A stretch of 62,507 nt of DNA from contig CAYUSS010000005.1 of the NCBI GenBank assembly GCA_964447515.1, forward strand, positions 1 to 62,507, in the 5' to 3' direction. Within the stretch, counting starts at the first letter, position 1; each line of letters opens with the position of its first letter. Shown in pieces: positions 23,003 to 55,650 of the stretch. The translations under genes and the position numbers were made by a program. This DNA comes from an uncultured Candidatus Saccharibacteria bacterium (lineage in GTDB: Bacteria; Patescibacteriota; Minisyncoccia; Minisyncoccales; GWA2-38-27). The notes beneath the pieces were generated by a model. That model was not told the DNA's origin. It ran no database searches and saw nothing but the letters and a program-made list of their open reading frames with translations.

Positions 23003-23024
23003 CTAAATTATGTTCAAGGGCGGG

Positions 23025-23047
23025 TGTTCAAGGTCGGGTCTTGAACA
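23025..23047. repeat. hairpin element providing the eno stop (family D)
   Basis: TGTTCAAGGTCGGGTCTTGAACA, identical at 26171-26192; encodes FKTRP* on the minus strand. Confidence 0.85.
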
Positions 23048-24296
23048 TTTCTTGTTCTATTCTTAAAAGCCGATTATACTTAGCTACCCTTTCCCCCCTT
23101 GCCGGCGCTCCTGATTTAATAAAATCAGCTCCGATGCCAACTGCTAAATCCGAAATAAAATCATCACAAGTATCTCCTGAACGATGAGAAACTATGATTT
23201 TCCATTTAAAAGATTTAGCTAATTTTGCTGCCTTAAGGGTCTCAGTAATAGTTCCAATTTGATTTGGTTTTAAAATAAGTCCGGAACAGGCTTTTTTATC
23301 TTGGGCTTGTTTTATTCTTTCAATATTAGTAGTTAAAAGGTCATCTCCGACAATAGTTATTTTCTCTCCCAACTTTTTAGTAATTTCCTGAAACCCTTGC
23401 CAATCTTCTTCTGAAAAGGGATCTTCTAAAAAAATAATTGGATAATTTTTTACAAGGTCTTTATAAAAAGCTAAAAGCCCTTGTTTGGTAAAAACTGCTC
23501 CCTCTAATTGGTATTTTTTATCTTTGTAAAATTGAGTCGCTGCGCAGTCCAAACCAATTTTTATTTTATTTTGATAATTGGCTTTTTTAACTGCCTTAAT
23601 TATTAAATCCAGTGCTTGTTTGGTTTGTTTAATTGGAGGAGCAAATCCCCCTTCATCTCCTACATTGGTTGCCTCTCTCCCTAAAAATTTTCTTAAAATA
23701 TCTTTTAAGATATGATATATTTCTTTCCCTGCTTGTAAATTTTCTGAAAAAGATTTTTGTTCAGGAACAATCATAAATTCCTGAAGAGCCAATTTATTTC
23801 CGGCATGAATTCCTCCTTCAATTATGTTAAAACAGGGAATCGGCAAGCTCCACGAGACCCGGCCTCGTAACGAGGCCGGGTCTCGTAACTCAAAAATATA
23901 TTTCCCCAAAGGTATACATTTGGCAACGGCTCCGGCTCGGCAAGTTGCTATTGAAACGGCTAAAATTGCATTAGCTCCCAAATTTGATTTATCTTTTGTT
24001 CCATCTAATTCAATCATTAATTGGTCAATTTCTTTTTGTTTTGTCGGGTCTTTGCCTTTAAGTTTGGGAGCAATAATTTCGTTAACGTTTTTAATTGCTT
24101 TTGAAACCCCTTTTCCGCAATATCTTTTTCCGCCGTCTCTCAACTCCTTTGCCTCATATTTTCCTTTTGAAGCGCCCGAAGGAACCGAAGCCCTAAAAAT
24201 ACCTAAATTGGTTTCTAATTCGGCTTCAACTGTCGGCTCTCCTCTGGAGTCCAAAATCTCCCTGGCTTTTATTGATTTGATTTTAGAACTTTTCAT
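23028..24296 (-). CDS. eno: enolase carrying an internal palindrome-derived insertion and a repeat-derived C-terminus
   Basis: EILDSRG, VPSGAS, VGDEGGFAP, GDDL, SHRSGDT, ERVAKYNRLLRIE. Confidence 0.97.
   Translation of the reverse strand: MKSSKIKSIKAREILDSRGEPTVEAELETNLGIFRASVPSGASKGKYEAKELRDGGKRYCGKGVSKAIKNVNEIIAPKLKGKDPTKQKEIDQLMIELDGTKDKSNLGANAILAVSIATCRAGAVAKCIPLGKYIFELRDPASLRGRVSWSLPIPCFNIIEGGIHAGNKLALQEFMIVPEQKSFSENLQAGKEIYHILKDILRKFLGREATNVGDEGGFAPPIKQTKQALDLIIKAVKKANYQNKIKIGLDCAATQFYKDKKYQLEGAVFTKQGLLAFYKDLVKNYPIIFLEDPFSEEDWQGFQEITKKLGEKITIVGDDLLTTNIERIKQAQDKKACSGLILKPNQIGTITETLKAAKLAKSFKWKIIVSHRSGDTCDDFISDLAVGIGADFIKSGAPARGERVAKYNRLLRIEQEMFKTRP
23852..23886. repeat. 35-bp palindrome in-frame in enolase
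   Basis: ACGAGACCCGGCCTCG-TAA-CGAGGCCGGGTCTCGT; peptide RDPASLRGRVS. Confidence 0.9.
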
Positions 24297-24883: not shown

Positions 24884-24941
24884 AAAGCCTGTTAGTATTT
24901 GATACCAACAGGCCTGTTGGTATCAAATACTAACAGGCTTT
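24884..24941. repeat. perfect 58-bp loopless palindrome
   Basis: AAAGCCTGTTAGTATTTGATACCAACAGG|CCTGTTGGTATCAAATACTAACAGGCTTT. Confidence 0.92.
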
Positions 24942-24955: not shown

Positions 24956-25972
24956 TTATTTTTGTTTTTGAATATATCCATAAGCGGCTAAGGCAGCTTT
25001 GGCTCCTTCACCGCAGGCAGTGATAATTTGCTTGTATTGACCAATATTTACATCGCCTACCGCAAATAGTCCTGGAGTTTTGGTTTGACAGGTTTCAAAC
25101 TCAACTTTTATTTCGTCTTTTTCATTAAATTCAACCAAACCCTTAACAAATGCGGTTGCCGGCTGGCTTCCAATTTCCACAAAAACACCCTCAATAGATA
25201 AGGTTTTTTCTTCTTTAGTTTTCCGAGATTGATAAACCATTGATTCTACAAACTTTTTGCCTTTAATTTCTTTCAGAGCAGCATTTGTTATTATTTCTGC
25301 TTTTTTAGTTTTCTTTATAATTTCCTGGTTTGTTTCATCAGCGCTAACTCGGGGACCATATTCTAAAATATAAATTTTTTTAACATAATTTGACAAAAAT
25401 ATCGCTGATTCAAAACCGGCGTTTCCTCCTCCAATAACTGCCACTGTTTTGTCAGCAAATAACACTCCGTCACATATGCTGCAATAACTCACGCCCTTTC
25501 CGATAAATTCTTCTTCACCAGGAACCTCTAAGGGCCGAGGGTCGGCTCCTGAAGCTACAATTATTGCTTTTGCCTGAAATTCTTTTTTATTTTTAGTAGA
25601 AACTAAAAAATCATTGTTTGTTTTTTTAACCCCGTTAAATAATTTCGCCTTCGGCGAAATTCCCGCTTTACGGGATTTAACAGGGTAAATTTTTTTTACT
25701 TCATCAATTTTAATTTCAACTTGCCCGCCCAAGTTTTTCTCCGAAAAACTTGGGCGGGCAAACTTTTTCAAATGGTTTTCAAATTTTTGAATAAGTTCTT
25801 GGCCTGAAATTTTTTCAAATCCAGGATAATTTTCAATAGCAACAGCTTTTTTTACTACCTGACCGCCAAAACTTTTGGTGATTAAAAGAGTATTTAATTT
25901 TTGTCTGGCAGCATAAATTCCAGCTGTAATTCCGGCCGGACCACCACCAATAATTATAAGGTCATAAATCAT
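24956..25972 (-). CDS. trxB: thioredoxin-disulfide reductase with two in-frame palindrome insertions
   Basis: IIGGGPAG, GKGVSYCSICD, VIGGGNAG, GLFAVGDV. Confidence 0.93.
   Translation of the reverse strand: MIYDLIIIGGGPAGITAGIYAARQKLNTLLITKSFGGQVVKKAVAIENYPGFEKISGQELIQKFENHLKKFARPSFSEKNLGGQVEIKIDEVKKIYPVKSRKAGISPKAKLFNGVKKTNNDFLVSTKNKKEFQAKAIIVASGADPRPLEVPGEEEFIGKGVSYCSICDGVLFADKTVAVIGGGNAGFESAIFLSNYVKKIYILEYGPRVSADETNQEIIKKTKKAEIITNAALKEIKGKKFVESMVYQSRKTKEEKTLSIEGVFVEIGSQPATAFVKGLVEFNEKDEIKVEFETCQTKTPGLFAVGDVNIGQYKQIITACGEGAKAALAAYGYIQKQK
25629..25689. repeat. family C element (TIR ACCCYGTTARAT...ATYTAACRGGGT) in-frame in trxB
   Basis: Outer stem plus two inner hairpins; near-identical to 30722-30775 in ftsZ; both encode GISPKAKLFN. 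Confidence 0.9.
25721..25761. repeat. family A palindrome in-frame in trxB
   Basis: TTGCCCGCCCAAGTTTTTC-TCC-GAAAAACTTGGGCGGGCAA; peptide ARPSFSEKNLGGQ. Confidence 0.92.
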
Positions 25973-26173
25973 AGAAAATAGTTATCGGAAAATAAGAACC
26001 TTTCGTCGCTTCGCTCCTCAAGAACCTTGATTCGCTAAGGAATAATCATATATTCTTGAATTAGAAAATGGTAATAGAAACTAAAAATTGAAAAATAGTA
26101 AATTCACTAATTTCTAATTTCCATTTTACATAACTAATTTCCAATTTTTTACGGGATGTTCAATGTCGGGTGT

Positions 26174-27049
26174 TCAAGGTCGGGTCTTGAACAAAACTTC
26201 AGGGATTGCCTCAATTAAATCTGTTGCCATTAGTGATTCCCCTAATTTTTCAGCTGCCAATCTTCCGGCCGAGCTATTAATAAAAGCGGCGGCTTGGCCT
26301 GCTTCAAACGGACTAATTCCTCTTGACATTAAAGCCCCGGCAATGCCGGCTAAAGTATCCCCTGTGCCGCCAACCGTCAATAAAGGCGAACCAATCTTTG
26401 AAAGAGCGGTTTCTTGACCGTTAGAAATTATATCTATTTTTCCTTTAAGTAAAATTGTGGTTTTAAGGCGCTCAGCTTGCTCTTGAACTATTTTTATTTT
26501 CTCCTCGTCAGAAAATTTGGATATATCTTTTCCTGTCAAAACAAAAAACTCATAACTATGAGGAGTAATCAAAAAAGGTTTTTGAGATATAATTTTTGGA
26601 TTCTTGCTTAAAGCATGAATTCCATCGGCATCAATTACTATAGGCAGAGAAACCTGCGATAGATATTCTAAAATTGTATCCTGGGTTTCCTCTGATCTTC
26701 CCGTTCCCCCACCAATCACTACAGCTGTTTTTCCTCGGGCAACCGCTTTAGCTGACTCTGTCATTGAAATCAAGATACTCAAGTGTTCTTTATTTAAGCG
26801 AATCCCTTCAAGGGGATAGGCTGCTAAATCAGGAGTAAAAGAAGCAATTATATTGGCTGCTCTCTTCGGGGCAATGATTTTAACCATATCTACTCCTGCT
26901 TTAAAAGCGGCCAAAGCTGAAAAAGCCGGCGAACCGCTGTAAAACTCAGAGCCTCCAATAACTAATAAAAGTCCGTAATCGTATTTCTTGACATCAGCCG
27001 GTCTTTTTTTATAAATGTTTTTTAAAATAGATTTGGTAACTTCTAACAT
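26174..27049 (-). CDS. nnrD: NAD(P)H-hydrate dehydratase (YjeF C-terminal)
   Basis: KYDYG.LLVIGGS..YSG, VIDADG, LITPH..EF, GGTGDTLAG. Start set at MLEVTK. Confidence 0.9.
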   Translation of the reverse strand: MLEVTKSILKNIYKKRPADVKKYDYGLLLVIGGSEFYSGSPAFSALAAFKAGVDMVKIIAPKRAANIIASFTPDLAAYPLEGIRLNKEHLSILISMTESAKAVARGKTAVVIGGGTGRSEETQDTILEYLSQVSLPIVIDADGIHALSKNPKIISQKPFLITPHSYEFFVLTGKDISKFSDEEKIKIVQEQAERLKTTILLKGKIDIISNGQETALSKIGSPLLTVGGTGDTLAGIAGALMSRGISPFEAGQAAAFINSSAGRLAAEKLGESLMATDLIEAIPEVLFKTRP

Positions 27050-28253: not shown

Positions 28254-28958
28254 TTATTTTATTTTTCTTTTTAAATAATCTTGAGCTTCTTTTTCAAAAT
28301 ATTCTTTTATTTTGTTTGGCTTATAAAATTCTTTTTTGAATATCAAGGGTTTAATCTCATTTAACCTTGCTGCTCCTTCTAAAATTTTACTCACCAATAA
28401 AACTGGGTCTATCTCTACTCCGAATTTCTTCTTGACCCATTTTAAAATTGTAAGAAATTTAATTTTCTTTTTTTTAAAAATACAATAAAGATCAAAAACA
28501 TCTTTTGCTTCGGCTCGTTCAAAAATAGTATGGGTCTTATTGGCTAACATGTCTTCAATTGCATCAATTTTAATATTAAACTCTTTAAGCTTTAATGGTC
28601 TTTTAATCTTGGGAAAAGGATAAAACACGAACTCAATTTTCAAAACTTCTCTATTCTTTTTAAACCAAAATTGGTGACGATTAAATTTTTTTTGTTCTTC
28701 AATTTCTTTAATTTTTAAGCTCTTGGCAATTTTTTTAATCTGACTTAAAAGATAATCATCTGCCAGTAAATCTTTTGATAAAAAATCTAAATCCTGGGAC
28801 TTACGATGGGAAAGATATTGATAAGCAAGGGCAGTTCCACCCGACCAAACAAAATAAGAACCGAGTTTACTCTTCCCAATTTCTTTTAGTGCTTCTTTTT
28901 GAAAAGGGGTTAGAACTTTATCCGGCACCTTTTTATTTTTATTAATAATATTAGTCAT
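28254..28958 (-). CDS. AbiEii/AbiGii-family nucleotidyltransferase toxin
   Basis: SGGTALAYQYLSHRKSQDLDF, ANK, R...KDVFDL. Confidence 0.85.
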   Translation of the reverse strand: MTNIINKNKKVPDKVLTPFQKEALKEIGKSKLGSYFVWSGGTALAYQYLSHRKSQDLDFLSKDLLADDYLLSQIKKIAKSLKIKEIEEQKKFNRHQFWFKKNREVLKIEFVFYPFPKIKRPLKLKEFNIKIDAIEDMLANKTHTIFERAEAKDVFDLYCIFKKKKIKFLTILKWVKKKFGVEIDPVLLVSKILEGAARLNEIKPLIFKKEFYKPNKIKEYFEKEAQDYLKRKIK

Positions 28959-30056: not shown

Positions 30057-31871
30057 TTAAAAGCTGGATGATTTTTTGCTGGCTTTGAATTTCTCTCTCC
30101 TGAAAATGGCTGGGGTTTGCCAAATTTTTTCCTTTTCTAATATTTCTTTTTCTTCTTCCTCAACTGCTTTTTTTAGCTGAAGACCTGTTCGTCTAACTTT
30201 TTCGTGCCCCAGCTCTTGGTAATCTAATGGTTTCTCTTTTTCTAATTTACCCCCCACCTTTTCTGCAGAAAAGGTGGGGGGGGTTTTTTCTTCCCCTGGC
30301 TTTTTTAGAATCTTGTTAGGAGTTTGCCCTGTTAGGGGCTTGTCCCCCACTTTCTTAAGTAAAGTGGGGGGTTCGCTTACTTTAGATTTTTTCTCTGCCT
30401 TTGCAACCTTTAACCGGGCTTGTTTTTTCTGACCTCTTAGGGATTTTTCCCCTTTGGGTTTTTTCTTTGGTTTTGGTTTTGGTTTTGTTTTCTTTACCCC
30501 TACGCCAGAACGAGGACTGGCTTTGCCAATTTTCCCGCCAGAGTCGGGTTGTCCTTGTTTGGTCTGGGGGCTTTTTTTAGTTTTACCCCCCACCACTTTT
30601 CCTTGAAAAGTGGTGGGGGGTTTATCTTCCACTACTTTCTCCTTTTGTTGAGAAACAGCACGAGCTTTAGGCTTCTTGGTTCCTAAAATTGGAGACTTCA
30701 CAACCTGAGAAGGTTCTACTATGTTAAATAATTTCGCCTTTGGCGAAATTCCCCCTTTAGGGTATCTAACAGGGTGAACCCTGTTAGATACCCGGCCTTT
30801 CGCAGAATGACTGGGTCTCACTTTAGGGGATTTAACAGGGTAAATCAAAAGCCCCTTTAGACCGCATCCTACAGCCAACAAAGTTATCTTAATTTTATCC
30901 TGAAGTTTTTGATTCTGGTTAATACCGAAAATAATTTTAGCTTTCTTGCTTATTGATTGAGAAATTATTTTTGATATTTGAGAAACCTCTGAAAGTTGGA
31001 GCGCTCTGCCACCGGTTATATTGTATAAAACCCTCTTCGCCCCTTTAGTAGTATAAGGATATAAGGGGCTAGAAATCACTTTTTTAACTGCTTCTTCTTT
31101 GTTGGGTGCTTTAACTTCTATGCTATTCAAATAAGCCAACCTGGCCCTACCGGTTAGGATTGTTTTTAGGTCAGCAAAGTCAATATTAATCAAACCAGGC
31201 AAATAAATCATTTCAATTAATCCTTCTAAATTTCCGGCCAATTTTTGGTTAATAGCAGAAAGAGCATTTTTTAAAGGAGCATTTTTATCAACAATTTGGA
31301 AAATTCTTTCATTAGGAATAACCGAATAGGCATTAAGGTGTGATTTTATTTTTCCAAGAGATTCTCTGGCAATTTCCATCTTTTTTTCTCCCTCAAATTT
31401 AAAGGGCAGAGTAAAAATTCCATAACTAAGACAACTTAAATTTTTAGAAATCTTAGCAAAAACCGGAACAGCACCAGAGCCGGTTCCCCCTCCCAAACAG
31501 GCAACAATAATACAAACATCCTGTTCCTCAAAAAGTTTTTTTATTTTTTCCTTTTCATTTTGGGCAGCCATTTCACCTATTTCTACATTCATCCCGGTGC
31601 CTAAACCCTGAGTTAGGTCTTGACCAAATTGAAATCGTTTCACTTTTTTGGCTACTTTTCTAAGAGCCCGGCTATCAGTATTAGCCGCTACAAAATCTGC
31701 TTTCTTCATTCTGGAGGCAATTTCTGAAACAATTGAACTGCCGCCCCCGCCAACGCCGATTAATCTGATTTTGGTCTTGCGAACCTCCTCTTTTGTTCTA
31801 ACCTTCTTGGTTTTAATAGGTCTTAAAACTTTCTTTTTCCTTTTTTTTATCTTTTGTTTTTTAGTAGTCAT
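30057..31871 (-). CDS. ftsZ: cell division protein FtsZ with very long repeat-built linker
   Basis: IGVGGGG, ANTD, GLGTG, CLGGGTGSGA, PFKFEG, GLINIDFADL, C-terminal QTPAIFRR. Start set at MTTKK. Confidence 0.92.
   Translation of the reverse strand: MTTKKQKIKKRKKKVLRPIKTKKVRTKEEVRKTKIRLIGVGGGGSSIVSEIASRMKKADFVAANTDSRALRKVAKKVKRFQFGQDLTQGLGTGMNVEIGEMAAQNEKEKIKKLFEEQDVCIIVACLGGGTGSGAVPVFAKISKNLSCLSYGIFTLPFKFEGEKKMEIARESLGKIKSHLNAYSVIPNERIFQIVDKNAPLKNALSAINQKLAGNLEGLIEMIYLPGLINIDFADLKTILTGRARLAYLNSIEVKAPNKEEAVKKVISSPLYPYTTKGAKRVLYNITGGRALQLSEVSQISKIISQSISKKAKIIFGINQNQKLQDKIKITLLAVGCGLKGLLIYPVKSPKVRPSHSAKGRVSNRVHPVRYPKGGISPKAKLFNIVEPSQVVKSPILGTKKPKARAVSQQKEKVVEDKPPTTFQGKVVGGKTKKSPQTKQGQPDSGGKIGKASPRSGVGVKKTKPKPKPKKKPKGEKSLRGQKKQARLKVAKAEKKSKVSEPPTLLKKVGDKPLTGQTPNKILKKPGEEKTPPTFSAEKVGGKLEKEKPLDYQELGHEKVRRTGLQLKKAVEEEEKEILEKEKIWQTPAIFRREKFKASKKSSSF
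30250..30844. repeat. cluster of at least five palindromic elements in the ftsZ linker
   Basis: Family B at ~30250-30283, 30344-30370 and 30585-30621; family C at 30722-30775 and 30778-30844. Confidence 0.88.
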
Positions 31872-33694: not shown

Positions 33695-35149
33695 TCATTT
33701 TTTTGGTTTTATCCATTTTAGAAAATTAAGTGCGGATAAAAACGATTTCAAAGAATTAACCTCTTTAATAGTTTGAAAAAACATTTTCGGCCGGAAATAA
33801 AATTTGAAATAAGCTTTATCTCTGAGTTTTTTAATTTCTTTGGCAGTCAAATTTTCATTTCTCATTACTGATTTAGTTAAATCAAATTGGGAAAAATTGT
33901 TCATCTTAATCCAATTGTTTTCTTTAGCAATTCTGCCTAATTCGGTTTTAGGGTAAGGTACGACGCAGTAAAATTGAGCATAATTGAGAGAACTCTGACA
34001 AGCCCATTCAATGGTTTTTTTAGCTGTTTTTTTTGTTTCGCCGGGCAGACCAAAAATAAAATGGCCCATTGAATTAATACCAGCTTTTTTAACTAAAGCA
34101 ATGGCTTTTTCAATCTGTTCTAAACTAATATTTTTGTGAGTTAAATCAATAATTTTTTGGTTAAATGATTCAATGCCCAAACTAAGCAAATGGCAACCAG
34201 CTTTTTTCATTTTTTCCAGTAATTGTTTATTCAAAGTATCTACCCGCGAAGCAGTCGCCCAAGTTATTTTTAAATTCCTTTTAATAATTTCATCACAAAT
34301 TTTCTCCCCATAAACCGAATCAATACTAAACGATTCTCCCCAAAAAAGAAAATTTTTGATACGATATTTATTAAGGCATTCTTCTATTTCATTAACAATA
34401 GAATCAACTTCTCGCTTGCGGAATTTTTTTCCGTAATAAAGATTGGCTACGCAAAAACTGCAATTATAGGGACAACCCCTGCCAACACTCAAAAGAGTGA
34501 ACTTTTCTCCATTGGTAGGTAAACAATAAGCCCCGTTATTAAGCAGGTCTCTGGCTGGAAAGGGCAGCTGGTTAATATCATTTTTAGATAAATCCTGAGG
34601 AAGATTAATTTTTATTTCCCCATCTCTGCGATAAACCAAACCGTTTATTTTTTCCAAAGGATTATCATTTTCTAAGGCTTGGCTTAAATTTTTAACCACC
34701 CATTCTGGCTCCCCAACAACAGCAAAGTCTGCTTGATTGAATTCTTTTAAAGACCTTTTTTCCAATAAAGTTGGATAAAGACCGATGATTGCTATTTTGG
34801 CTCGCCCTCCCAAATTTTTGGAGAAAATTTGGGAGGGTGAAGGAAAAGAATTTTTAATTAAACTGACTGTCTCCATATCCCCTTTTATTGAAGGAAAAGC
34901 AGTATTTACTATAATCAGTTCTGGTGAAAATTTTTCAGCCAATTCTAATAAATCTTTATTATTAATTTTCTCGGCAATACAATCGATTAAAAGGATATTA
35001 TACCCGTCCTGTCTTAAAAAAGCGGCTGTATAAGCCAAAGACAAAGGCATCCACAAAGCGGCCCAAGATGATTTCGTCTGCATACATCTCCCCTCTCTGA
35101 TATAATCTTTTTTATTGTAAGCCGGAGGATTAATAATTAATATTTTCAT
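33695..35149 (-). CDS. B12-binding radical SAM protein
   Basis: PLSLAY, GEPE, GRGCPYNCSFC, GIES, FIFGLPGET. Confidence 0.9.
   Translation of the reverse strand: MKILIINPPAYNKKDYIREGRCMQTKSSWAALWMPLSLAYTAAFLRQDGYNILLIDCIAEKINNKDLLELAEKFSPELIIVNTAFPSIKGDMETVSLIKNSFPSPSQIFSKNLGGRAKIAIIGLYPTLLEKRSLKEFNQADFAVVGEPEWVVKNLSQALENDNPLEKINGLVYRRDGEIKINLPQDLSKNDINQLPFPARDLLNNGAYCLPTNGEKFTLLSVGRGCPYNCSFCVANLYYGKKFRKREVDSIVNEIEECLNKYRIKNFLFWGESFSIDSVYGEKICDEIIKRNLKITWATASRVDTLNKQLLEKMKKAGCHLLSLGIESFNQKIIDLTHKNISLEQIEKAIALVKKAGINSMGHFIFGLPGETKKTAKKTIEWACQSSLNYAQFYCVVPYPKTELGRIAKENNWIKMNNFSQFDLTKSVMRNENLTAKEIKKLRDKAYFKFYFRPKMFFQTIKEVNSLKSFLSALNFLKWIKPKK
34803..34839. repeat. family A-type palindrome in-frame in the radical SAM gene
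   Basis: CGCCCTCCCAAATTTT-TGGAG-AAAATTTGGGAGGGTG; peptide PSPSQIFSKNLGGR. Confidence 0.85.
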
Positions 35150-35820: not shown

Positions 35821-38800
35821 TTATTGGGCGTAATTACAAATTTCTCTAAAATCACAAAACTTGCACTGCCAGCCAGGATTTGGAGCAAAATCACTCTTTT
35901 CAATTTTTTCAATCTCTAACAATATTTTTTCTTTTTGTTTTTCTTTTTCCTTTTCTTTACCCAAAAAAGAAGTTATCTTCCCTTCTTTTAAATAATAATA
36001 ACCAAGTTTTGTTGGTTTAAGCCCAAAAATCTCTTCAACGGCAATCTGATAAATCAAAAGCTGTTGTTTATCTTCTGAAGATAATTTCTCTTTAAATCTC
36101 CCGGTTTTATAGTCAATAATTCCCACCCCGGTTTTCAATTTATCAATCCTGTCTATTCTGCCCAATAAAATATGTCCTCCCAGCTTTAATTTAAAAGGCA
36201 GTTCCAGAGCAATTTGCTTATTGATTCTTAAAATCTCCGGCGGCTTTTCTTGAAATTTATTGTAAAAATCTTTAAGTATTTTCCTGCCTAATTTATAATA
36301 TCCCTGCTTTTGATTTTGGGATTCATACCATTCATCAATCCATTTTTGCTTATATATCTTAACTAAATCTTCAAAATTAAAACCCTTAACACCCGACGTT
36401 TTCCTCGGCGCCTCTGGCGCCAATTCCTCAACGTCGGGTGTTGAAAGGTCGGGTTTTGTATCAACAAACAAATTGCTCTGGCTAACCCATTTTTGTTCAA
36501 TAACCAATTTCACAAACTGGTATAAGGTATTGTGTATTGTCTTACCAAAAGAGAAAACCGCCTTGCCCCTAATCGGCACTCTAAGAATATGGGCAAATTT
36601 ATATTGTAAAGGGCATTTTTCAAAAGCGGCTAATTGGGAAAATGAAAAATGAGAAGGCAGGATATTCTTAACGCCCTTAATACTCTTAACATCTTCAACA
36701 CCCGACGTTTCCCTTGGCGCCTCTGGCCCGCCTAAATTTTTCTCTGAAAAACTTAGGCGGGCTGGCGTCAATTCCTCAAGGTTGGGTGTTGTAACATCAA
36801 GTTTTTTACCAAAACCCATTTCAATTAAAAATCTTGATGGTTTCTTCTTTCTCAGACCACCGTAATCATCGGCTGAAGTAAAAAATAATTTCTCCTTTGC
36901 TCGAGTCATTGCCACATAACAAAGCCTTCTCTCCTCTTGTAAATGGACATCGCCTTGAGTAATAAGCTCTTTAACTAATTCCCGGGGAATTTCAATCGGT
37001 TCTTTGCGTTCAGTAGTTGGAAATTTTCTGTCTGTTAAATTAACTAAAAATACATATTTGAATTCCAGACCCTTGGCCGAATGAATAGTCATTATTCTGA
37101 CCATATCCGGCCCCTGTTCAGGGTCAAATTCAAGTTTACCCTGCTGTCCTGATTCTATTTCTAAATTTATTTGTTCTATAAAATTTTTAAGGGTTGGGTC
37201 TATTGCCAATTCCTCAAACTCTTTGACTTTTTTATAAAACTGATTGATTAAATCCAAGTCCTGCTTGCCTCCCATCACTTTTTCTTGAAAAGTGGTGGGG
37301 GGTTTACTTTCTTTATCTATCAAATAATTTAAATAACCGGAATCTTTTAAAAAGGCAACCAAAACCTCAGAAACATTTTTCTGGCGCGACAGCTCAGTGT
37401 GTTTCTGAAGTAAACTTAAAAGAAAATTAATTTTATTATGGGTTTTTTGGGAAAGGCCGTAAATTAAAGGAAGCTCCCGGAGGGTCTGGTAAATTGATTT
37501 TGCTTTCCGCCAACTATATTGAGTAATTTTCATTATTTCTTCTGAAGGAATTTCTAAAAATGGCAAATTCAAAATTCTATAAATTGAAGAACCCTCCTCA
37601 TAATTATCTAAAAGTTTAAAATAAGAAATAATATCTAAAATAACCGGCTTGGTATAAAGTCCCCGAGAGGCTAAAAACTGATAAGGAAAACCGGCTCTCT
37701 CTAATGCCCTAATAAATGAGTTGGCTGATTCATTTGTTCTAACTAAAATAGCAAAATCATTAAAATTTGCTTCTTTGTCTTTTTTCAAAATCTCGCTAAT
37801 TTTATTGAGCACTCCCTGGGTCTCCTCCTCTGAATCTTTAAAATGTGAGCACTCAATAAGACCTTTGTCTTTTTTGTCAGCAATCAATTTTTTATTAACT
37901 TTACTAACATATTCAAGCCGATTGGGATTATTGGCTTTGATAAATTTGTAAGATAAATCCAAGATATTTTGAGCAGAACGATAATTTTTAATCAAAGAAA
38001 TTTCTTTCGCCTTGGGAAAATCTTTCCTGAATTGGATAATGTTATTAAAAGAGGCCCCGCGCCATCTATAGATTGCCTGGTCATCGTCAGCCGAGACCGT
38101 AAGATTATTTTTTGGTACGGCTAATATTTTTGCTAATTCATATTGAGCCCAGTTAGTATCCTGAAACTCGTCAATTAAAATATACTTAAATTTTTCTCTG
38201 TACTTTTCCAAAATAAGGGGTCTTTCTTGGAAAAGTTTCAAGCAGTAATTAATTAAGTCGCCAAAATCCAAAAAATTATTTTCCAGAAGCAAATTCTGAT
38301 AAATATGATATGCCTCAGCCACCTCTTTAATTCTTTCTGTTTCCTGATTTTCCGGCAAATCAGTGAGATTAGTTTTTAGCCCTTCGCTATATTTTAAATA
38401 ATCTTCTGGATAAATTCCCTGGTCTTTACAACGGGAAAAATGAGAAATTAAAGCCTGGACAAATTTAGTTGGTCTGCCCAAGGGTTTGTAATAATCAAGC
38501 TTAAATTTATCTAAATTCTGCCTAATCAAAAGCCAAGCGGCAGTTTGGTCTAATAATTTAAAATCAGGAGACAAGCCAATATCCAAAGCATGCTCTTTTA
38601 AAATTCTTTGACAAAAAGAATGAAAAGTAGAAATCCATAAATCCATATAGCCGTAGGGCAAAAGTATATCTACCCGTTCTTCCATTTCTCCGGCCGCTTT
38701 GTCAGTAAAAGTTACTGCTAAAATTTCCTCCGGTTTAGCTTTGTTGCTTTCAATTAAATAAGCAATGCGTTGGGTAATTACTGTTGTTTTGCCGGTGCCG

Positions 38801-38883
38801 GCTCCGGCCACAATTAGAAGCGGTCCCTGTCCATAAGTAACCGCTTGTTTTTGTTCTTTATTTAATTTATTTTGAATATTCAT
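35821..38883 (-). CDS. UvrD/PcrA-family helicase fused to a C-terminal PD-(D/E)xK nuclease
   Basis: AGAGTGKT, IDEFQD, DDDQAIY.WRG, TIHSAKGLEF, EERRLCYVAMTRAK; C-terminal GRIDRID/IIDYKTG and four-Cys motif. Confidence 0.92.
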   Translation of the reverse strand: MNIQNKLNKEQKQAVTYGQGPLLIVAGAGTGKTTVITQRIAYLIESNKAKPEEILAVTFTDKAAGEMEERVDILLPYGYMDLWISTFHSFCQRILKEHALDIGLSPDFKLLDQTAAWLLIRQNLDKFKLDYYKPLGRPTKFVQALISHFSRCKDQGIYPEDYLKYSEGLKTNLTDLPENQETERIKEVAEAYHIYQNLLLENNFLDFGDLINYCLKLFQERPLILEKYREKFKYILIDEFQDTNWAQYELAKILAVPKNNLTVSADDDQAIYRWRGASFNNIIQFRKDFPKAKEISLIKNYRSAQNILDLSYKFIKANNPNRLEYVSKVNKKLIADKKDKGLIECSHFKDSEEETQGVLNKISEILKKDKEANFNDFAILVRTNESANSFIRALERAGFPYQFLASRGLYTKPVILDIISYFKLLDNYEEGSSIYRILNLPFLEIPSEEIMKITQYSWRKAKSIYQTLRELPLIYGLSQKTHNKINFLLSLLQKHTELSRQKNVSEVLVAFLKDSGYLNYLIDKESKPPTTFQEKVMGGKQDLDLINQFYKKVKEFEELAIDPTLKNFIEQINLEIESGQQGKLEFDPEQGPDMVRIMTIHSAKGLEFKYVFLVNLTDRKFPTTERKEPIEIPRELVKELITQGDVHLQEERRLCYVAMTRAKEKLFFTSADDYGGLRKKKPSRFLIEMGFGKKLDVTTPNLEELTPARLSFSEKNLGGPEAPRETSGVEDVKSIKGVKNILPSHFSFSQLAAFEKCPLQYKFAHILRVPIRGKAVFSFGKTIHNTLYQFVKLVIEQKWVSQSNLFVDTKPDLSTPDVEELAPEAPRKTSGVKGFNFEDLVKIYKQKWIDEWYESQNQKQGYYKLGRKILKDFYNKFQEKPPEILRINKQIALELPFKLKLGGHILLGRIDRIDKLKTGVGIIDYKTGRFKEKLSSEDKQQLLIYQIAVEEIFGLKPTKLGYYYLKEGKITSFLGKEKEKEKQKEKILLEIEKIEKSDFAPNPGWQCKFCDFREICNYAQ
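36388..36789. repeat. two family E elements in UvrD; the second carries a nested 39-bp family A insertion
   Basis: AACACCCGACGTT...AACGTCGGGTGTT at ~36388-36442; copy at ~36696-36789 interrupted by CCGCCTAAATTTTTCTCTGAAAAACTTAGGCGGGCTGGC. Confidence 0.88.
37268..37302. repeat. family B palindrome in-frame in UvrD
   Basis: CCTCCCATCACTTTTTCTTGAAAAGTGGTGGGGGG; peptide PPTTFQEKVMGG versus PPTTFQGKVVGG in FtsZ. Confidence 0.88.
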
Positions 38884-41570: not shown

Positions 41571-42365
41571 CTATCTATTTTCGTTTTCGTCTCCCTCGTT
41601 TTTATTCTCTTTTGGTAATTCTTTGCCAAATCTTTCAAAGGCCCTCAAAATTTCCAAGGGCACGGCAAAAATAATCGTATTTGACTGGTCAGAACTTATA
41701 TCATTGATTGACTGAAGGGTTCTTAAATGAAGGGCTCCCTTGGCTTCCGATAAGGTTCTGGCAGCTTTAGCCATATTGTTAGCGGCAATAACTTCTCCTT
41801 CAGCCCTGATAATTATCGCTCTTTTTTCTCTCTCTGCTTCTGCCTGCTTGCCAATCACTCTTTTCATTTCTTCCGGCAATGTTATATCTTTTAACTCCAC
41901 ATTAATAACTTTAATCCCCCAAGGGTCACTGGCTTTATCAATAATGTCCCTTATGCTTTCTGAAACTCTGTCTCTTTGAGAAAGAAGCCCGTCTAAATCC
42001 ACCTGACCAACGGCGTTTCGCATTGTTGTTTGGGCTAATTGAGAAATGGCATAGTAAAAATCCTCTACCTCCAAAACCGCCTTATCGGCTTCCCGAACTT
42101 TATAATAAATAACGGCATTAACACTAACCGAGATGTTGTCTTTAGTAATTGCCTCTTGATTTGCCACATCCACTGCTTTCACCCTTAAATCTATCTTTCT
42201 GTAAGAATAGAAAATCGGCCAAATCAATCTCCAGCCGGGCTTCATTATACCAATATACTTTCCCAATCTAAACTTAACTCCATTTTGATACTGATTAATT
42301 TGTCTAATAGAAATTAAAACTATAACAATAATCGCTATTAAAATTGTCCAAATTATACTTGGCAT
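41571..42365 (-). CDS. SPFH/band 7 (slipin) protein
   Basis: ITKDNISVSVNAVIYY, AQTTMRNAVG, WGIKV..VELKD, AEAEREKRA. Confidence 0.93.
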   Translation of the reverse strand: MPSIIWTILIAIIVIVLISIRQINQYQNGVKFRLGKYIGIMKPGWRLIWPIFYSYRKIDLRVKAVDVANQEAITKDNISVSVNAVIYYKVREADKAVLEVEDFYYAISQLAQTTMRNAVGQVDLDGLLSQRDRVSESIRDIIDKASDPWGIKVINVELKDITLPEEMKRVIGKQAEAEREKRAIIIRAEGEVIAANNMAKAARTLSEAKGALHLRTLQSINDISSDQSNTIIFAVPLEILRAFERFGKELPKENKNEGDENENR

Positions 42366-42521
42366 ATTTTTTTACCCTGTTAAATACTGTTTTACGGCAA
42401 TTTTGCCAAAGACAAAATTATTTAACAAGGTGAATTATTAATAATAAATCTCTTTTTGCCCTTTCTTAAATTTTACCACAATTAAAAATCCAAGGCAATC
42501 TGCTCGCTGATGAAAAAGGTG

Positions 42522-50603: not shown

Positions 50604-53072
50604 TCAGCGATTTAAGACTTTATCAATTGATTTATCAAGTTCTTTTAGTTCGTGTTGGTGTTTCGCCTTAAAGGAAGTGGAAACTTGGATGTGCGAAATA
50701 ATGCTTTTTTGTAAATCCGAATGTCTTTTCGGATTTGGTATTTGGACTTCTTTTATCACATTAAACGAAACGGCGTCTCTAATACTACCAGTAGCCAATA
50801 ACTCTAAATAAAGGCGATAGAAATTATTGCGAAGAATAGAAATAATGTATTGTGGTTCAATTTCTTTCTTCTTTCCATTTTTTACTCTCATAACAACATA
50901 GGCGGGACTAACAAGCATCCCATCTAATTCTTTCGGGACGACTCCTATTGAACCAACATTGATACGATAAGGGTTGTATGCAATGTCTCCAGCCCGAACC
51001 ACTTTATATTTCTGATTGATGTCCTCGCCCAATCTTTCCTCATTAAAAAGCACTAAACCCTCGTTAATAACAGATAGTATTGGATAATACTTTGATGGTT
51101 CTTCACGGGGGTCAATCTTATCTTTAACCTCGTCAACAAAATTACCAAGTTTTACTCTTTCAAACTTCCTTCGTTCCAACTCTCGTCTAAACCAGTAATA
51201 TCTGGCATCGAATCTGTCTTCTAACGAGCCCGAATCAACCACAAAAGACAAGTCTTCGCTGACATTCTTCCCGCTTAAAAATTGTTCCCAGCCCAAGAGA
51301 ACCTTATCTAAATCAGTTTTTTCGCCTTCTTTTATTGTCGGCTTACCATTAGGCTCATATCCAATATCTTTCACAACTCCCATAAAGATTTTGTGAGAGC
51401 GTTTAACTCCGCCCTTTTTCTTTTTTAGAAACAACAAACTGGTATTGATTGTAGGAACTCCGCTCGGAGTAAAGGTATGTGCTGGCAACGAAACAACCCC
51501 GACTATCTGGGCGTTTTCTAAAATAAACTCTCGCACATATCCCATTGATGGATTTCCTAAAACTCCGTCTGGTAAAACTATCCCCATTCTTCCCCCTTCT
51601 TTTAAGTAATCTAAACATCTCTCAATAAATAAAACTTCTGTTCTTTGTTGTTTTCTGCCGTTGGTTTTAGAGCCCAGAAAATAATCTGCTAAATAACGAT
51701 GCTCTTTTTCTGACACACTTGCACCAAAGGGCGGATTGGTAAGCAACAAAGTGTATTTACCCAATTTAATATCTCGGCGGGGATTAAACTTTGATACCAC
51801 ATCAAGAGAATCATTATTTTCTATATTGGAATGACCATCCTCGTGGATAATCATATTCATCATTGCTATTCTCGATAGCTGACTATTTACTTCTACCCCA
51901 TAAAGATTATAAAGAGCAAAATCACTCCACTGGCGTTTTGCATTATCTGGTTCAAACTTCGCTTCAATTTCTTTCCTGACTTTATCTAAAATATAAAGAA
52001 GAAAACCACCGCTTCCGCACGCTGGGTCAATAACCACATCGTCAACGACTGGCTTCATAAAATCTACCATAAACCTAACGACTTCTCGTGGGGTAAAATA
52101 CTGACCCATTTCGCCTCTAAATATCTTTTTAAGAAATGTCTCAAAAGCCCTACCCTTAGAATCCAGCTCGGTTCTTGAAAGAGAAATACCCTGTAATTTT
52201 TCTACCACGCTATAAAGCACTTCATCGCTTAACCTCAATGGTGCTTCGAAAACATCGGGGTCTCTTTGTTGAGCTTTTTGGTAAATGCCACGAACCCTAT
52301 CCGCTACCTCTTTTGCTGTTTCGTGAGTTCCGACTTGAAAATTATAATAATCGCCGATAGGCGTAAGCGTTCGTTCGTCTTTATCTTTACAAAACATTAA
52401 CTTGCTCATTTCATCAAAAGCCTCTGCTGGGTTCATCTTGCCGCCCTGCCAGATAATGTCGTGGCACTGCTGAAGACGAGATTGAAGTTCATACAAATTA
52501 GCTGGTTTCAAATCCCATTCAGGGTCGGCTTTTTTGAACTTAAACTTTACAACTTTCCCATAGCGAATAGGAATGTCAGAGATAATGTTTTTATCTCGCT
52601 CCTGCGGGTCAAAACCAGCTACATCAAAGGCAACCTCAATACTTCCCGCTACCATCATCGCATAGGGGGCTCTTAAAGAGTTTGCGTTCCCGAACGCCTG
52701 CTCAATCGCTTGGGAGATTGCTGACTGCGGTATGCCTTCTTTTTTACACTCCACGACAATATAGGGACGCTTTCTGGCATCGTCTTCATAAATTACAATG
52801 TCGGCAGAATCCGATGGGGTGCGTCTTGGCACAACCACTTCTAAATCAATGCGATTTTCTGGATATTTGTATTTATCAATTAGTTTTACATAAAAAGACG
52901 CCCGCACGATTTCTTCGGGGTCTTGAAAATTATAAGACTTGCCTGTTTTGAGGTAAGTTATTCTGCCATCTTTAATAGAAAGCAGTTTGTTCTTTTCGCC
53001 AAGTGCAATGAGATGCTGAAAGGCGTCAAAAGAATCTTTATGATTTTGATTCTCATTCTTATTTTTAGGCAT
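50604..53072 (-). CDS. fused restriction-modification enzyme (HsdR_N nuclease + N6-adenine MTase + single TRD; type IIG/IIB-like)
   Basis: SADIV..VVECKK nuclease motif, GQYFTPR, DPACGSGG, TNPPFG, C-terminal HsdS-like segment. Confidence 0.85.
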   Translation of the reverse strand: MPKNKNENQNHKDSFDAFQHLIALGEKNKLLSIKDGRITYLKTGKSYNFQDPEEIVRASFYVKLIDKYKYPENRIDLEVVVPRRTPSDSADIVIYEDDARKRPYIVVECKKEGIPQSAISQAIEQAFGNANSLRAPYAMMVAGSIEVAFDVAGFDPQERDKNIISDIPIRYGKVVKFKFKKADPEWDLKPANLYELQSRLQQCHDIIWQGGKMNPAEAFDEMSKLMFCKDKDERTLTPIGDYYNFQVGTHETAKEVADRVRGIYQKAQQRDPDVFEAPLRLSDEVLYSVVEKLQGISLSRTELDSKGRAFETFLKKIFRGEMGQYFTPREVVRFMVDFMKPVVDDVVIDPACGSGGFLLYILDKVRKEIEAKFEPDNAKRQWSDFALYNLYGVEVNSQLSRIAMMNMIIHEDGHSNIENNDSLDVVSKFNPRRDIKLGKYTLLLTNPPFGASVSEKEHRYLADYFLGSKTNGRKQQRTEVLFIERCLDYLKEGGRMGIVLPDGVLGNPSMGYVREFILENAQIVGVVSLPAHTFTPSGVPTINTSLLFLKKKKGGVKRSHKIFMGVVKDIGYEPNGKPTIKEGEKTDLDKVLLGWEQFLSGKNVSEDLSFVVDSGSLEDRFDARYYWFRRELERRKFERVKLGNFVDEVKDKIDPREEPSKYYPILSVINEGLVLFNEERLGEDINQKYKVVRAGDIAYNPYRINVGSIGVVPKELDGMLVSPAYVVMRVKNGKKKEIEPQYIISILRNNFYRLYLELLATGSIRDAVSFNVIKEVQIPNPKRHSDLQKSIISHIQVSTSFKAKHQHELKELDKSIDKVLNR

Positions 53073-53326
53073 AGGTGAACGCTATGTTTCGGCTATCTTC
53101 AAAACAAAAAGGGACAGCCAAGCTGTTCACCCACAACGGTTCGTCCCGAAGGAGTCCCCAATTATGGAACTTGACTGCCCCTTCCTACCCACAATTGGGT
53201 AAAGAGACAGTTCTCCTTCGGAAAAAATCCGTTGTAGGTGAACAATTTTATAGTATCTCATTTTTCTAAAAAAATAAAGTGTTTTAACTTGAAAAATAAC
53301 CAAAAATAAGATAAAATAAGTATAAA

Positions 53327-55135: not shown

Positions 55136-55167
55136 TCCCTTTGTCGTCTATTGTTATAGAGAGAATG

Positions 55168-55196
55168 TTGACAGCGGAAAATCAGTTTGCTAAAAT
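55168..55196 (+). promoter_or_regulatory. sigma70 promoter
   Basis: TTGACA-17-TAAAAT. Confidence 0.7.
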
Positions 55197-55256
55197 TAAA
55201 TTAGCTAAAATAAATAACCAGTTAGTTAAGGGCTAACCCAAGTAGCGATAAAAAGG

Positions 55257-55309
55257 GCTACTAATGAATATCCAGTAATCATACTGGGTGTCTGTTAGTA
55301 GCTTTTTTT
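55257..55309 (+). terminator. leader terminator upstream of the sigma2-only gene
   Basis: GCTACTAA/TTAGTAGC outer stem, inner stem, T7 tract. Confidence 0.65.
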
Positions 55310-55350
55310 GTTGCTAATCACTCATATGATTACTGAGAATAAGTAATTGT

Positions 55351-55650
55351 ATGAGAATGCGTTTATTTAATTCAAAATACCAAGATGACATTCTTGGAAA
55401 AGCTAAAACATATAATATCCCAAATATGGAATGGCAAGATGTTGCCCAAGAGTTAGATATAGCTCTCTGGCAAAACTTAGGTAAATTTCAGGGTCGCAAT
55501 AACGCCAGCGAGCGGACTTTTGCGATGAAAGTAATGCGGAATAAAATCATTGACTTGGCTAAATCCGCAAACCGAAAGAAAAGATTGATTGACAGCTACC
55601 ATCTTTCGCTCGATGAGCTGATGGAGCGAGAGTTCGCCAGCAGTTATTAA
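55351..55650 (+). CDS. sigma-70 region 2-only protein
   Basis: QDVAQE...LW...KF....ERTFA...MRNKIIDL...NRKKR (SigH/ComX-like region 2); ends before any region 4 HTH. Confidence 0.7.
   Translation: MRMRLFNSKYQDDILGKAKTYNIPNMEWQDVAQELDIALWQNLGKFQGRNNASERTFAMKVMRNKIIDLAKSANRKKRLIDSYHLSLDELMEREFASSY

Follow-up and report, generated by a model that had tools for sequence, protein, structure and literature searches.

The uvrD gene of an uncultured Candidatus Saccharibacteria bacterium carries two copies of a palindrome of 57-60 bp, and the second differs from the first by exactly 39 bp. How these 39 bp came to be present in one copy and not in the other is the question that we address here. They could have been inserted as a mobile element, lost from the copy that now lacks them, made in place, or spread as a motif that serves the host. 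We analyzed the window, a stretch of 62,507 nucleotides that contains uvrD, and compared it with orthologues and with related sequences from other genomes. We suggest that the 39 bp probably belong to a family of MITE-like miniature foldback elements that is spread across Patescibacteria and is here called family A.

An empty and a filled palindrome in uvrD

The uvrD product is encoded by a single ORF (Table 1) with the Pfam domains UvrD-helicase, UvrD_C and PD-(D/E)XK. It is 1020 aa long; its orthologues mostly have 960-990 aa. We compared it with 120 Patescibacteria orthologues. One of these, P0002, is 80% identical and lacks both outer palindromes as well as a further family-A hairpin of the gene, which belongs to subfamily A2. 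Thus, three or more insertions entered uvrD after it split from P0002. At the place of the A2 copy the sites in P0002 and P0003 are empty, and uvrD has 13 codons more than they do. Assembly artefact is excluded, since the same inserts are present in two near-identical UvrD strain variants from other contigs. The polymorphism between filled and empty sites that the earlier note proposed to look for was not seen among these near-identical variants: their 90% cluster has three members, and every insert is present in all of them.

Table 1. Positions of the gene, the palindromes and the family-A hairpins in the window
Feature	Positions	Strand	Sequence or remark	Basis
UvrD/PcrA-type helicase fused to PD-(D/E)XK nuclease (uvrD)	35821-38883	minus		ORF, translation, Pfam, orthologues
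Outer palindrome copy 1 (empty)	36386-36444		absent from P0002	sequence, repeat search, folding
Outer palindrome copy 2 with inner hairpin (composite)	36695-36792		99 nt	repeat search, folding
CTGG, left direct repeat (target duplication)	36723-36726			
Inner family-A hairpin, core	36727-36761		35 nt: 16-nt arms, 3-nt loop	
CTGG, right direct repeat (target duplication)	36762-36765			
Second uvrD family-A copy, subfamily A2	37267-37305 (core 37268-37302)		encodes KPPTTFQEKVMGG	
trxB family-A copy	25724-25758		FARPSFSEKNLGGQ	
ftsZ linker, shorter family-A-like hairpin	30250-30281		TPPTFSAEKVGG	
ftsZ linker, degenerate family-A-like hairpin	30344-30370		EPPTLLKKVGD	
ftsZ C-terminal linker copy, A2	30586-30620		exact TTTA/TTTA flanks	
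B12-binding radical-SAM gene, family-A-like hairpin	34802-34840		SPSQIFSKNLGGR	

Outer copy 1 reads TTAACACCCGACGTTTTCCTCGGCGCCTCTGGC followed by GCCAATTCCTCAACGTCGGGTGTT. It ends in 13-nt terminal inverted repeats, AACACCCGACGTT and AACGTCGGGTGTT, its interior is TTCCTC-GGCGCC-TCT-GGCGCC-AATTCCTC, and it is translated as STPDVEELAPEAPRKTSGVK within the second variable linker of UvrD. There are three exact matches to the terminal repeat AACACCCGACGTT. With up to three mismatches there are 17 matches, compared with 7.9 +/- 2.8 in shuffled sequences, none of which reached 17. Outer copy 2 lies in the first linker, with AACATC on both flanks (36688-36693 and 36793-36798). Its halves are 86% and 80% identical to copy 1 (repeat families D20 and D17), and between them are exactly 39 extra bases, translated as ARLSFSEKNLGGP. 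We therefore agree with the earlier note that uvrD has two copies of one element, that the second holds exactly 39 extra bases, and that the window contains both an empty and a filled outer palindrome.

The core of the insert is CCCGCCTAAATTTTTC-TCT-GAAAAACTTAGGCGGG, a GC-clamped palindrome that is translated as (P)ARLSFSEKNLGG(P). CTGG is repeated on its two sides, and the base that follows is C in each case (36766 for the right one). Hence the repeat had been read as CTGGC, and this sequence is indeed found on both sides. The DNA folding z-scores are -8.1 for the inner hairpin, -7.7 for the empty outer palindrome and -9.6 for the composite. Neither the count of terminal repeats nor the folding is what chance would give.

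Family A in the window and in other Patescibacteria

There are seven family-A copies in the window, all in frame: one in trxB, three in ftsZ, one in the radical-SAM gene and two in uvrD. That all seven lie in coding sequence was set aside as evidence because the window is almost entirely coding. The arms are 16 nt long with 0-3 mismatches, and the fold z-scores range from -5.3 to -9.1. Each arm pair combines a GC clamp, CCCGCC or CCCCCC, with an A/T-rich inner stem (..TTTTTC / GAAAAA..) around a 3-nt loop; the GC content of the window is about 35%. Between subfamilies, palindromy is preserved by paired changes. Two of the three frames are free of stops on either strand, and the peptides are of the types xRxSFSxKNLGG and KPPTTFQxKVxGG (trxB, uvrD, ftsZ, radical SAM, LigA, S1 and others). 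A single reading frame common to all copies was rejected: the frame begins at core position 3 in A1 but at position 1 in A2, and the likeness between A1 and A2 peptides is due to runs of T/A only. Rfam had no matching family at the window hairpins.

We scanned one genome per species, 185,579 species in all, with a pattern that specifies 24 bases. This gave 15 further copies in 14 contigs, all of them Patescibacteria. Including the seven in the window, the copies within ORFs number seven of seven here and at least nine of 15 elsewhere. The protein hosts elsewhere are LigA, ribosomal protein S1, ComEC, O-antigen ligase, a GT4 glycosyltransferase, PrsW, POR and a pilin leader. Further copies lie between genes, and one is part of RNase P RNA. 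The insert in the pilin leader (L008) duplicates GFT..GFT, with TTTA(C) on either side, and empty orthologous sites were found in L001 and L002. The FtsZ linker and LigA loops are too divergent to give exact insert boundaries, the former relative to the L022 FtsZ and the latter relative to solved LigA structures. Contig L014 has two copies in different genes, 2.4 kb apart, that are identical at 35 of 35 positions. The L014 hairpin in RNase P RNA, which is the Rfam match at that place, is helix P12 of that RNA. In bacteria, the consensus of this stem is likewise CCCGCC/GGCGGG. Rfam gave no match at the conserved intergenic copy common to L007 and L013, and the pattern had no matches in the IMG/VR viral contigs. 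Family A is about 85-90% conserved across lineages as far apart as Saccharibacteria and Parcubacteria-group bacteria. Neutral selfish DNA is not usually so well conserved, and this hints at constraint or gene conversion.

Length of the element and its putative target duplication

Four of 20 independent copies have an exact 4-nt direct repeat around the 35-nt core. Cross-paired flanks give such a repeat at 2.6%, so that four in 20 has a binomial P of 0.0017. One more copy matches at three of the four flank positions, and the remainder have no repeat. The repeated bases vary by site (CTGG, TTTA, TTTG), and CTTG and others also occur as flanks. A core of 35 bp with a 4-nt duplication (35+4=39) fits all four clean cases and appears to fit better than the 34-bp element with a 5-nt duplication that the earlier note offered, which matches at only four of five positions in L010 and in the ftsZ copy. 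Its other proposal, 37 bp with 2 nt, is contained in 35+4 and does not account for the two additional bases that match. Boundaries are consistent in other copies, given the 13-codon insert relative to empty orthologues and the 4-nt repeat. The earlier note also saw a clue to mechanism here. That clue is weaker than claimed, because 16 of the 20 copies have no exact 4-nt repeat.

We found no DDE or HUH (Y1) transposase among the approximately 55 ORFs of the window or in the fetched loci. Nor was there, in about 200 kb of loci, a solitary arm pair flanking an ORF, as a parent IS would have.

The trxB site and the question of a host motif

The trxB copy is an old, patchily distributed insertion, and 22 of 120 orthologues have an insert at its site. 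It had been described as adding 13 residues; relative to empty orthologues the net gain is 12, since 39 nt came in and one AAA codon was lost. All filled orthologues have an identical junction, yet two unrelated palindromes occupy the site, which simple random transposition does not predict. To see whether the inserts are surface loops, TrxB was modeled with AlphaFold2. In this model, which is of low quality (mean pLDDT 58.9), both inserts lie in segments of low confidence that have no secondary structure, but other segments are of this kind too.

The different palindromes at one trxB junction are among the observations that would be explained if the hairpin were a selected host motif, a DNA or RNA hairpin for protein binding or processing, for example, and perhaps related to P12, that spread or was homogenized through recombination and gene conversion among short palindromes and was not transposed. 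The strong sequence conservation between distant lineages, the identity of the L014 hairpin with helix P12 together with the similar consensus stem, the paired changes between subfamilies and the lack of an exact flanking repeat in most copies point the same way. However, the hairpins occupy unrelated positions (protein loops, C-termini, a signal peptide and intergenic DNA) with no common context, they are absent from close orthologues, and exact flanking duplications are enriched. We thus regard a host motif as unlikely and favor a mobile element.

The composite at a second locus

In a metagenome scan with the left half of the outer palindrome, one further copy only was returned, and the outer repeat was rejected as a large family on this count, although the scan did not return the contig of the window. 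The further copy is again a composite. It lies in an unrelated intergenic spacer (contig L021, 6567-6666) and is 92% identical over 100 nt to the composite in uvrD. The junction is identical, the direct repeat is CTAG(C) there, and the inner hairpin matches that of uvrD at 33 of 34 positions. Since the L021 composite has the same junction, either the nesting is older than the uvrD copy or there is a hot spot, and it was not an event within uvrD. In line with the earlier note, the 39 bp behave as an inserted member of a repeated palindrome family that was once mobile and made a short target duplication, but the claim of an insertion "caught in the act" goes too far.

The same 33 of 34 positions, and the approximately 85-90% identity to copies in other lineages, bear on whether the 39 bp were made in place by hairpin-templated synthesis, template switching or slippage, an alternative that the earlier note itself raised. 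It is not credible that the same 35-mer was generated locally on independent occasions, and the inner hairpin of uvrD shares no sequence with its flanks. Two observations are in its favor elsewhere. At the position of outer copy 1, P0003 already encodes TKPD..TPDI, so that one terminal repeat may have pre-existed and the other arm may be an inverted copy of it. In trxB, the left flank AAAAAGTTTG resembles the inner arm of the hairpin. For the 39 bp, we consider a local origin highly improbable.

The direction of the change is a separate matter. Hairpins flanked by short repeats are commonly lost by replication slippage, and the composite of 96-99 bp could have been the original form, from which copy 1 lost the hairpin by slippage between the CTGG(C) repeats. 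The composite is found at two unrelated loci, outer copy 2 and L021, and the uninterrupted form once only. The three outer copies differ in their arms by 4-5 positions per pair, counted by eye. This pattern is star-like, with copy 1 not a clear outgroup, and is as compatible with insertion as with deletion. What speaks against loss is that more than 20 other sites have the family-A hairpin by itself, as a 39-bp addition relative to empty orthologues there. In addition, the outer repeat without the hairpin has an intact symmetric center, GGCGCC-TCT-GGCGCC, which the hairpin breaks, and the flanking repeats are site-specific (CTGG, TTTA, TTTG), as target duplications should be. Loss from copy 1 is therefore unlikely, and we prefer insertion of the hairpin into an outer repeat.

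Comparison with known elements

The closest analogues of family A are the GC clusters of yeast mitochondria and the Rickettsia palindromic elements. Yeast GC clusters are short GC-rich palindromes scattered through a compact genome that is very rich in AT; var1 is polymorphic in size because of insertions that keep its frame, the short terminal repeats AG and TAG have been interpreted as target duplications, and clusters merge or nest into new clusters, while the mobilizing enzyme is unknown (PMC8811140). Family A resembles them, by analogy only, as a GC-rich palindrome in AT-rich DNA that has direct repeats, is in frame and is nested. The yeast clusters differ in being organellar, unrelated in sequence and mostly intergenic, with repeats of 2-3 nt instead of 4 and without a fixed length that would secure the frame. 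Homology to them is excluded by host and sequence.

Rickettsia palindromic elements are selfish palindromes of a bacterium with a reduced genome. They have repeatedly been found in frame within housekeeping genes that are not related to one another, and each encodes a conserved peptide (PMC10969869). Family A likewise has palindromes in frame in unrelated protein genes and encodes a conserved peptide. The Rickettsia elements are about 100-150 bp long, alphaproteobacterial and unrelated in sequence, and a consistent target duplication is not part of their definition, whereas family A is 35 bp long and all its matches are in Patescibacteria.

MITEs are usually 50-500 bp long, with an internal segment and a recognizable parent IS. 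Those of bacteria (Correia/NEMIS, ERIC, RUP, QMITE and others) are non-autonomous and multi-copy, with terminal inverted repeats, short target duplications and occasional in-frame intragenic copies (PMC10969869). Family A shares with MITEs the terminal inverted repeats, the dispersed non-homologous sites and the empty sites in relatives. Unlike MITEs, its core is 35 bp and the two 16-bp arms with the 3-nt loop are the whole element, and no parent IS or cognate transposase for it is present in the window or the fetched loci.

REP/REPIN sequences, which RAYT (IS200/IS605-like Y1) transposases mobilize, are GC-rich imperfect palindromes of 20-40 nt in many copies (PMC3733652). Family A is similar as a set of short GC-rich palindromes with many copies. 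REPs are extragenic with a GTAG or CGTC head, whereas family A is largely intragenic and its flanks have no such head; CGTC is present only in the arm of the outer repeat. Single-strand transposition of the RAYT type is not known to produce a target duplication. Some family-A copies, in contrast, show the 4-nt duplication. The 62.5 kb of this genome covered here have no RAYT gene or other Y1 transposase. Elements of the IS1397/ISKpn1 type are full-length members of the IS3 family that insert into palindromic units with a 3-4-bp duplication. They are similar in that a mobile element lands inside another palindromic repeat, but they encode their own transposase. A full-text search of the literature found no description of such elements in Patescibacteria, which is weak evidence of absence.

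Implications

A near-perfect palindrome of 35 bp with a 4-bp target duplication always adds 39 bp, or 13 codons. Since element and duplication make a multiple of three, and two of three frames are stop-free, a copy can persist as a translated 13-residue loop. Essential proteins would tolerate it where a linker is variable or a loop lies at the surface, and copies survive in intergenic DNA as well. As to the history of the locus, we propose that one family-A copy inserted into the GGCGCC-TCT-GGCGCC center of a palindromic repeat of another kind, 57-60 bp long. The composite may then have been copied as a unit into the first uvrD linker and the L021 spacer, and the second uvrD linker retains the uninterrupted outer repeat. 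We infer that the element is inserted at a staggered cut of 4 nt that is then filled in. A trans-acting, transposase-like enzyme would do this, recognizing the 16-bp arms as a pair of terminal inverted repeats set directly against each other.

More tentatively, at somewhat less than even confidence, family A may represent a class of prokaryotic mobile elements that extends through the phylum, has not been described before and is the smallest known: 35-bp in-frame hairpins that nest and would be moved by an enzyme. If so, every insertion would be in frame, so that essential genes and even RNase P RNA could be colonized in genomes that are nearly all coding. Nesting into other mini-palindromes would build composite elements, and the hairpins may derive from helix P12 of RNase P RNA or convert it.

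If the mobile-element reading is confirmed, family A would be a bacterial counterpart to the yeast mitochondrial GC clusters, the mobilization of which has been unexplained for decades, and the enzyme that moves a 35-bp hairpin would become a sharp mechanistic question. The inserts would be strain-level markers, and annotators and structure predictors should beware of non-homologous 13-residue inserts. The genomes of CPR/Patescibacteria are tiny and almost fully coding, which raises the question of where selfish DNA could find a place. The answer suggested here is that elements that are short, and at 35+4=39 bp always a multiple of three, remain in essential proteins as additional loops. If confirmed, this would account for some of the length variation and GC-rich insertions of CPR proteins that now lack an explanation.

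Palindromes in uvrD and family A

The UvrD/nuclease protein of the window is 30-60 residues too long, because most of its best 120 homologues have 960-990 aa. The named proteins among these 120 are from Patescibacteria throughout (Nealsonbacteria, Minisyncoccales, Paceibacterota). An earlier note on this DNA had described two copies of an outer palindrome in the gene, and both are present as quoted, the halves of copy 2 being 86% and 80% identical to copy 1. Its insert of exactly 39 bp with CTGGC on either side was also confirmed, since C follows each CTGG; both outer copies are translated in frame, the insert as ARLSFSEKNLGGP. Folded as single-stranded DNA, the inner hairpin gives -15.1 kcal/mol (z -8.1), the empty outer copy -21.2 kcal/mol (z -7.7) and the composite -31.6 kcal/mol (z -9.6). 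The outer terminal repeat is commoner than in shuffles.

Scanning the window for hairpins turned up six more examples of the inner-hairpin design, making seven copies of family A. The arm combines a C-rich clamp with an A/T-rich inner stem that ends in TTTT(T)C; a loop of 3-5 nt and the mirror-image arm follow. Subfamily A1 (CCCGCC-yAAr-TTTTTC...) encodes xRxSFSxKNLGG in the window and subfamily A2 (CCCCCC-ACCAC-TTTTC...) encodes KPPTTFQxKVxGG; all seven copies are within ORFs and without stop codons. Frame 1 of the A1 core usually contains TAA, and the remaining two frames are open on either strand. Other genomes use both open frames, with xRxxFSxKNLGG far commoner than PPKFFxEKxxR.

Coordinates of the features, in the window unless another contig is named
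Feature	Position	Details
UvrD/nuclease ORF	35821-38883	minus strand; 1020 aa; UvrD-helicase, UvrD_C and PD-(D/E)XK nuclease domains
Outer copy 1 (empty)	36386-36444	57-59-nt palindrome; 13-nt terminal inverted repeats AACACCCGACGTT / AACGTCGGGTGTT; centre GGCGCC-TCT-GGCGCC
Outer copy 2 (composite)	36695-36792	both copy-1 halves with exactly 39 more bases between
Inner hairpin core, uvrD	36727-36761	35-nt palindrome; CTGG abutting each side
Family A, trxB	25724-25758	
Family A, ftsZ	30250-30281, 30344-30370, 30586-30620	
Family A, radical-SAM gene	34802-34840	
Family A (A2), uvrD	37268-37302	
Family A, L014	224-258	helix P12 of RNase P RNA (40-452)
Family A, L014	2656-2690	glycosyltransferase gene
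Double hairpin	25630-25690; 30722-30778; 42371-42434	second copy with partial 30816-30845
TTCAAG-ACCCGAC-CTTGAA hairpins	23010-23047, 26156-26193; L017 9-27; L021 6524-6548	
Contents of 53000-61300		602-aa unknown protein, DUF5659, primase zinc ribbon, large serine recombinase (59550-61235)

Distribution of family A

A conserved 35-bp palindrome is dispersed in Patescibacteria, adding 39 bp where its boundaries are measurable. We scanned one genome per species from 185,579 bacterial and archaeal species with the pattern CCCGCCNNNNTTTTTCNNNGAAAAANNNNGGCGGG (24 specified bases), which returned 15 copies on 14 contigs. Thirteen of these contigs carry a Patescibacteria-lineage name (Wolfebacteria, Saccharibacteria, Nealsonbacteria, Yanofskybacteria, Nomurabacteria and unnamed members including a single-cell genome), and one, L005, is titled only "bacterium". 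The free positions of the pattern are conserved as well, mostly as TAAR / YTTA. A set of 2.9 million viral contigs yielded no copy. The host genes are unrelated: NAD-dependent DNA ligase, ribosomal protein S1, ComEC, O-antigen ligase (two copies), GT4 glycosyltransferase, PrsW protease, a POR subunit and a pilin leader peptide. The remaining copies are in intergenic DNA, apart from one in RNase P RNA. That copy, on a Saccharibacteria contig (L014), is 35/35 identical to a copy 2.4 kb away in a glycosyltransferase gene, and the Rfam consensus P12 stem is likewise CCCGCC/GGCGGG. Separately, contigs L013 (4100-4650) and L007 (6830-7380), labelled Nomurabacteria and Saccharibacteria, share about 75-80% DNA identity over >400 nt around a common intergenic copy, which points to either a mislabelled contig or a transfer.

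Empty sites and target duplication

The uvrD A2 site is uninterrupted in the orthologues P0002 (80% identical, L001) and P0003 (L002), where GAA AAT runs directly into AAA CAG; the window gene is 13 codons longer at this point. A separate A2-like block of 13 codons, flanked by TTTACT and TTCACT (L002 12090-12128), is present in UvrD of the P0003-P0011 clade. In a Nealsonbacteria pilin gene (L008) the insert is in the leader, with GFT..GFT duplicated and TTTA(C) on each side of the core.

We compared the 4 nt on either side of the 35-nt core in 20 independent copies. The earlier note looked to such flanks for a target duplication, and this holds for part of the family: the repeat is exact in four copies (CTGG in uvrD, TTTA in ftsZ, TTTA in L008, TTTG in L010) and absent as an exact repeat in 16, one further copy matching at 3/4 positions. 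Cross-paired flanks of different copies match exactly at a rate of 2.6%, giving a binomial P of 0.0017. Thus, a significant minority of copies has an exact 4-nt flanking repeat. Four nucleotides also fit these clean cases better than the two readings offered before, 34 + 5 and 37 + 2. A 5-nt duplication is true for only two of the four, the seeming fifth base being the first C of the clamp, and 37 + 2 is contained in 35 + 4 and treats another two matching bases as chance. The insert is therefore best described as 35 + 4 = 39. TTTA or TTTG adjoining the clamp recurs among the copies and may represent a target preference.

The trxB site and other palindromes

An insert follows HLRK in 22 of the 120 closest TrxB proteins, the rest continuing directly with QKVDIE. 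The filled state is scattered on a neighbour-joining tree, and the site is empty in P0124, the nearest relative of the window. The 13 residues previously ascribed to the trxB copy are only approximately right: 39 nt are inserted in the filled alleles, but one AAA codon is gone and the net gain is 12 codons. The junction holds two unrelated palindromes by lineage, A-type in the window and P0129 and C-type in P0145 and P0217. The C-type stem (ACCCTGTTAAAT...ATTTAACGGGG) is the outer stem of a double-hairpin element elsewhere in the window, of which a single-hairpin relative occupies trxB site 1 in P0145 and P0217. The junction looks like a hot spot, or like element replacement via shared tips (TTTACCC...GGG). 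In trxB of P0128 (L023), a hairpin CCCGCCCTTTTAAAAAAGGGCGGG is nested within the A-type hairpin at site 1, and a second loop of the protein has a 22-residue insert starting GKPPTTFQE (A2-like).

The double hairpin (58-60 bp, outer stem ACCCTGTTAAAT/ATTTAACGGGGT around two small hairpins) is a second mini-element family. Its trxB copy is exactly 20 extra codons (YPVKSRKAGISPKAKLFNGV) relative to six orthologues; the ftsZ linker contains a second, and a third, in inverted orientation, is directly upstream of an SPFH gene (41571-42365).

Further palindromes were observed. The enolase gene has an in-frame perfect 17-bp-stem palindrome at 23852-23886 (ACGAGACCCGGCCTCGT-A-ACGAGGCCGGGTCTCGT, peptide LRDPASLRGRVSW), with akin ACGAGG...CCTCGT hairpins at 3149-3179 and 18981-19005. 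A 58-bp perfect palindrome (24884-24941; 29-nt arms, no spacer) separates a pilin-like gene from trxB. The related genome L020 has another family (CCGAGCACATAA...TTATGTGCTCGG; 1827-1854, 5266-5293), one copy within the enolase gene and the other flanked by GTAAA on both sides.

History of the nested repeat

Neither outer copy occurs in P0002, the nearest UvrD orthologue; both are therefore lineage-specific and were added in variable linkers. Scanning metagenomes for the left half of the outer repeat yielded a single additional copy, which is on contig Ga0315545_1000113 (L021, 35% G+C), in a 170-bp spacer between two convergent genes; this contig and the window have nothing in common except repeats. 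The L021 copy is also composite, its inner hairpin 33/34 identical, at the same position and bracketed by CTGGC and CTAGC. Therefore the nesting did not happen in uvrD, and the proposal that it was "caught in the act" there is not supported. Either a single nesting event was followed by copying of the whole composite, or the outer repeat has a strong hot spot at its centre. The three outer copies differ at 4-5 positions per pair, counted by eye, which does not polarise the change. Two points favour insertion rather than deletion: the hairpin is present on its own at many sites, and the outer repeat, when uninterrupted, is symmetric about an intact centre. The reading as a once-mobile palindrome inserted within another, with target duplication, is supported in kind, its mechanism being inferred.

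Copy 2 is bracketed by AACATC (36688-93, 36793-98), a span of 99 + 6 = 105 nt or 35 codons, and this single case suggests that the composite was inserted with a 6-nt duplication. In copy 1, one terminal repeat may predate the remainder, because the orthologue P0003 already encodes TKPD..TPDI at that spot. Within the outer terminal repeat is a small hairpin, TCAAC-ACCCGAC-GTTGA, of the same motif as TTCAAG-ACCCGAC-CTTGAA. In the window, the latter hairpins overlap stop codons/3' ends of the genes for enolase and NAD(P)HX-dehydratase. A sister species has them at conserved positions, and they may be terminator-like or REP-like.

Genomic setting

The window has about 35% G+C, nearly all genes on the minus strand, one tRNA and a partial bacterial 16S rRNA gene. 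In the 16S fragment (1-986), model positions 1-896 are spread over 986 nt, and the extra 90 nt or so may be an insertion. At 53000-61300 coding shifts to the other strand and the sign of the GC skew reverses; this region is probably an integrated element. An AbiEii-family nucleotidyltransferase toxin (28254-28958) and an 822-aa N6-adenine methylase with an HSDR_N domain (50604-53072; a restriction-modification enzyme of the Eco57I/MmeI kind) were also seen.

Discussion

We suggest that family A would transpose by a staggered 4-nt cut and repair, performed by an enzyme acting in trans. The 62.5-kb window encodes no DDE or Y1/HUH transposase; its sole recombinase is the large serine recombinase of the apparent integrated element at 53-61 kb. 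A second possible reading is gene conversion, or else selection acting on a structured motif; it would accommodate how strongly the sequence is conserved between distant lineages, as well as helix P12 of RNase P RNA and the hot spot in trxB.

Of the features that define MITEs, family A falls outside the size range, and no parent IS was found for it in the window or the loci compared. Nor does it share either defining trait of REP/RAYT systems, an extragenic position and a GTAG/CGTC head. Rickettsia palindromic elements likewise occupy housekeeping genes in frame, at several times the length (PMC10969869). By analogy, the closest functional counterpart is found in the GC clusters of yeast mitochondria, palindromes rich in GC within AT-rich DNA, some of them inserted in frame in var1; their 2-3-nt terminal repeats are taken as target duplications, the clusters merge and the mobilising activity is unknown (PMC8811140). 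A search of full-text literature returned no description of such elements in Patescibacteria. We read family A as in-frame palindromic selfish DNA, a kind already known, set apart by how extremely small it is, by a length that of itself preserves the frame and by its confinement to Patescibacteria (13/14 contigs so named).
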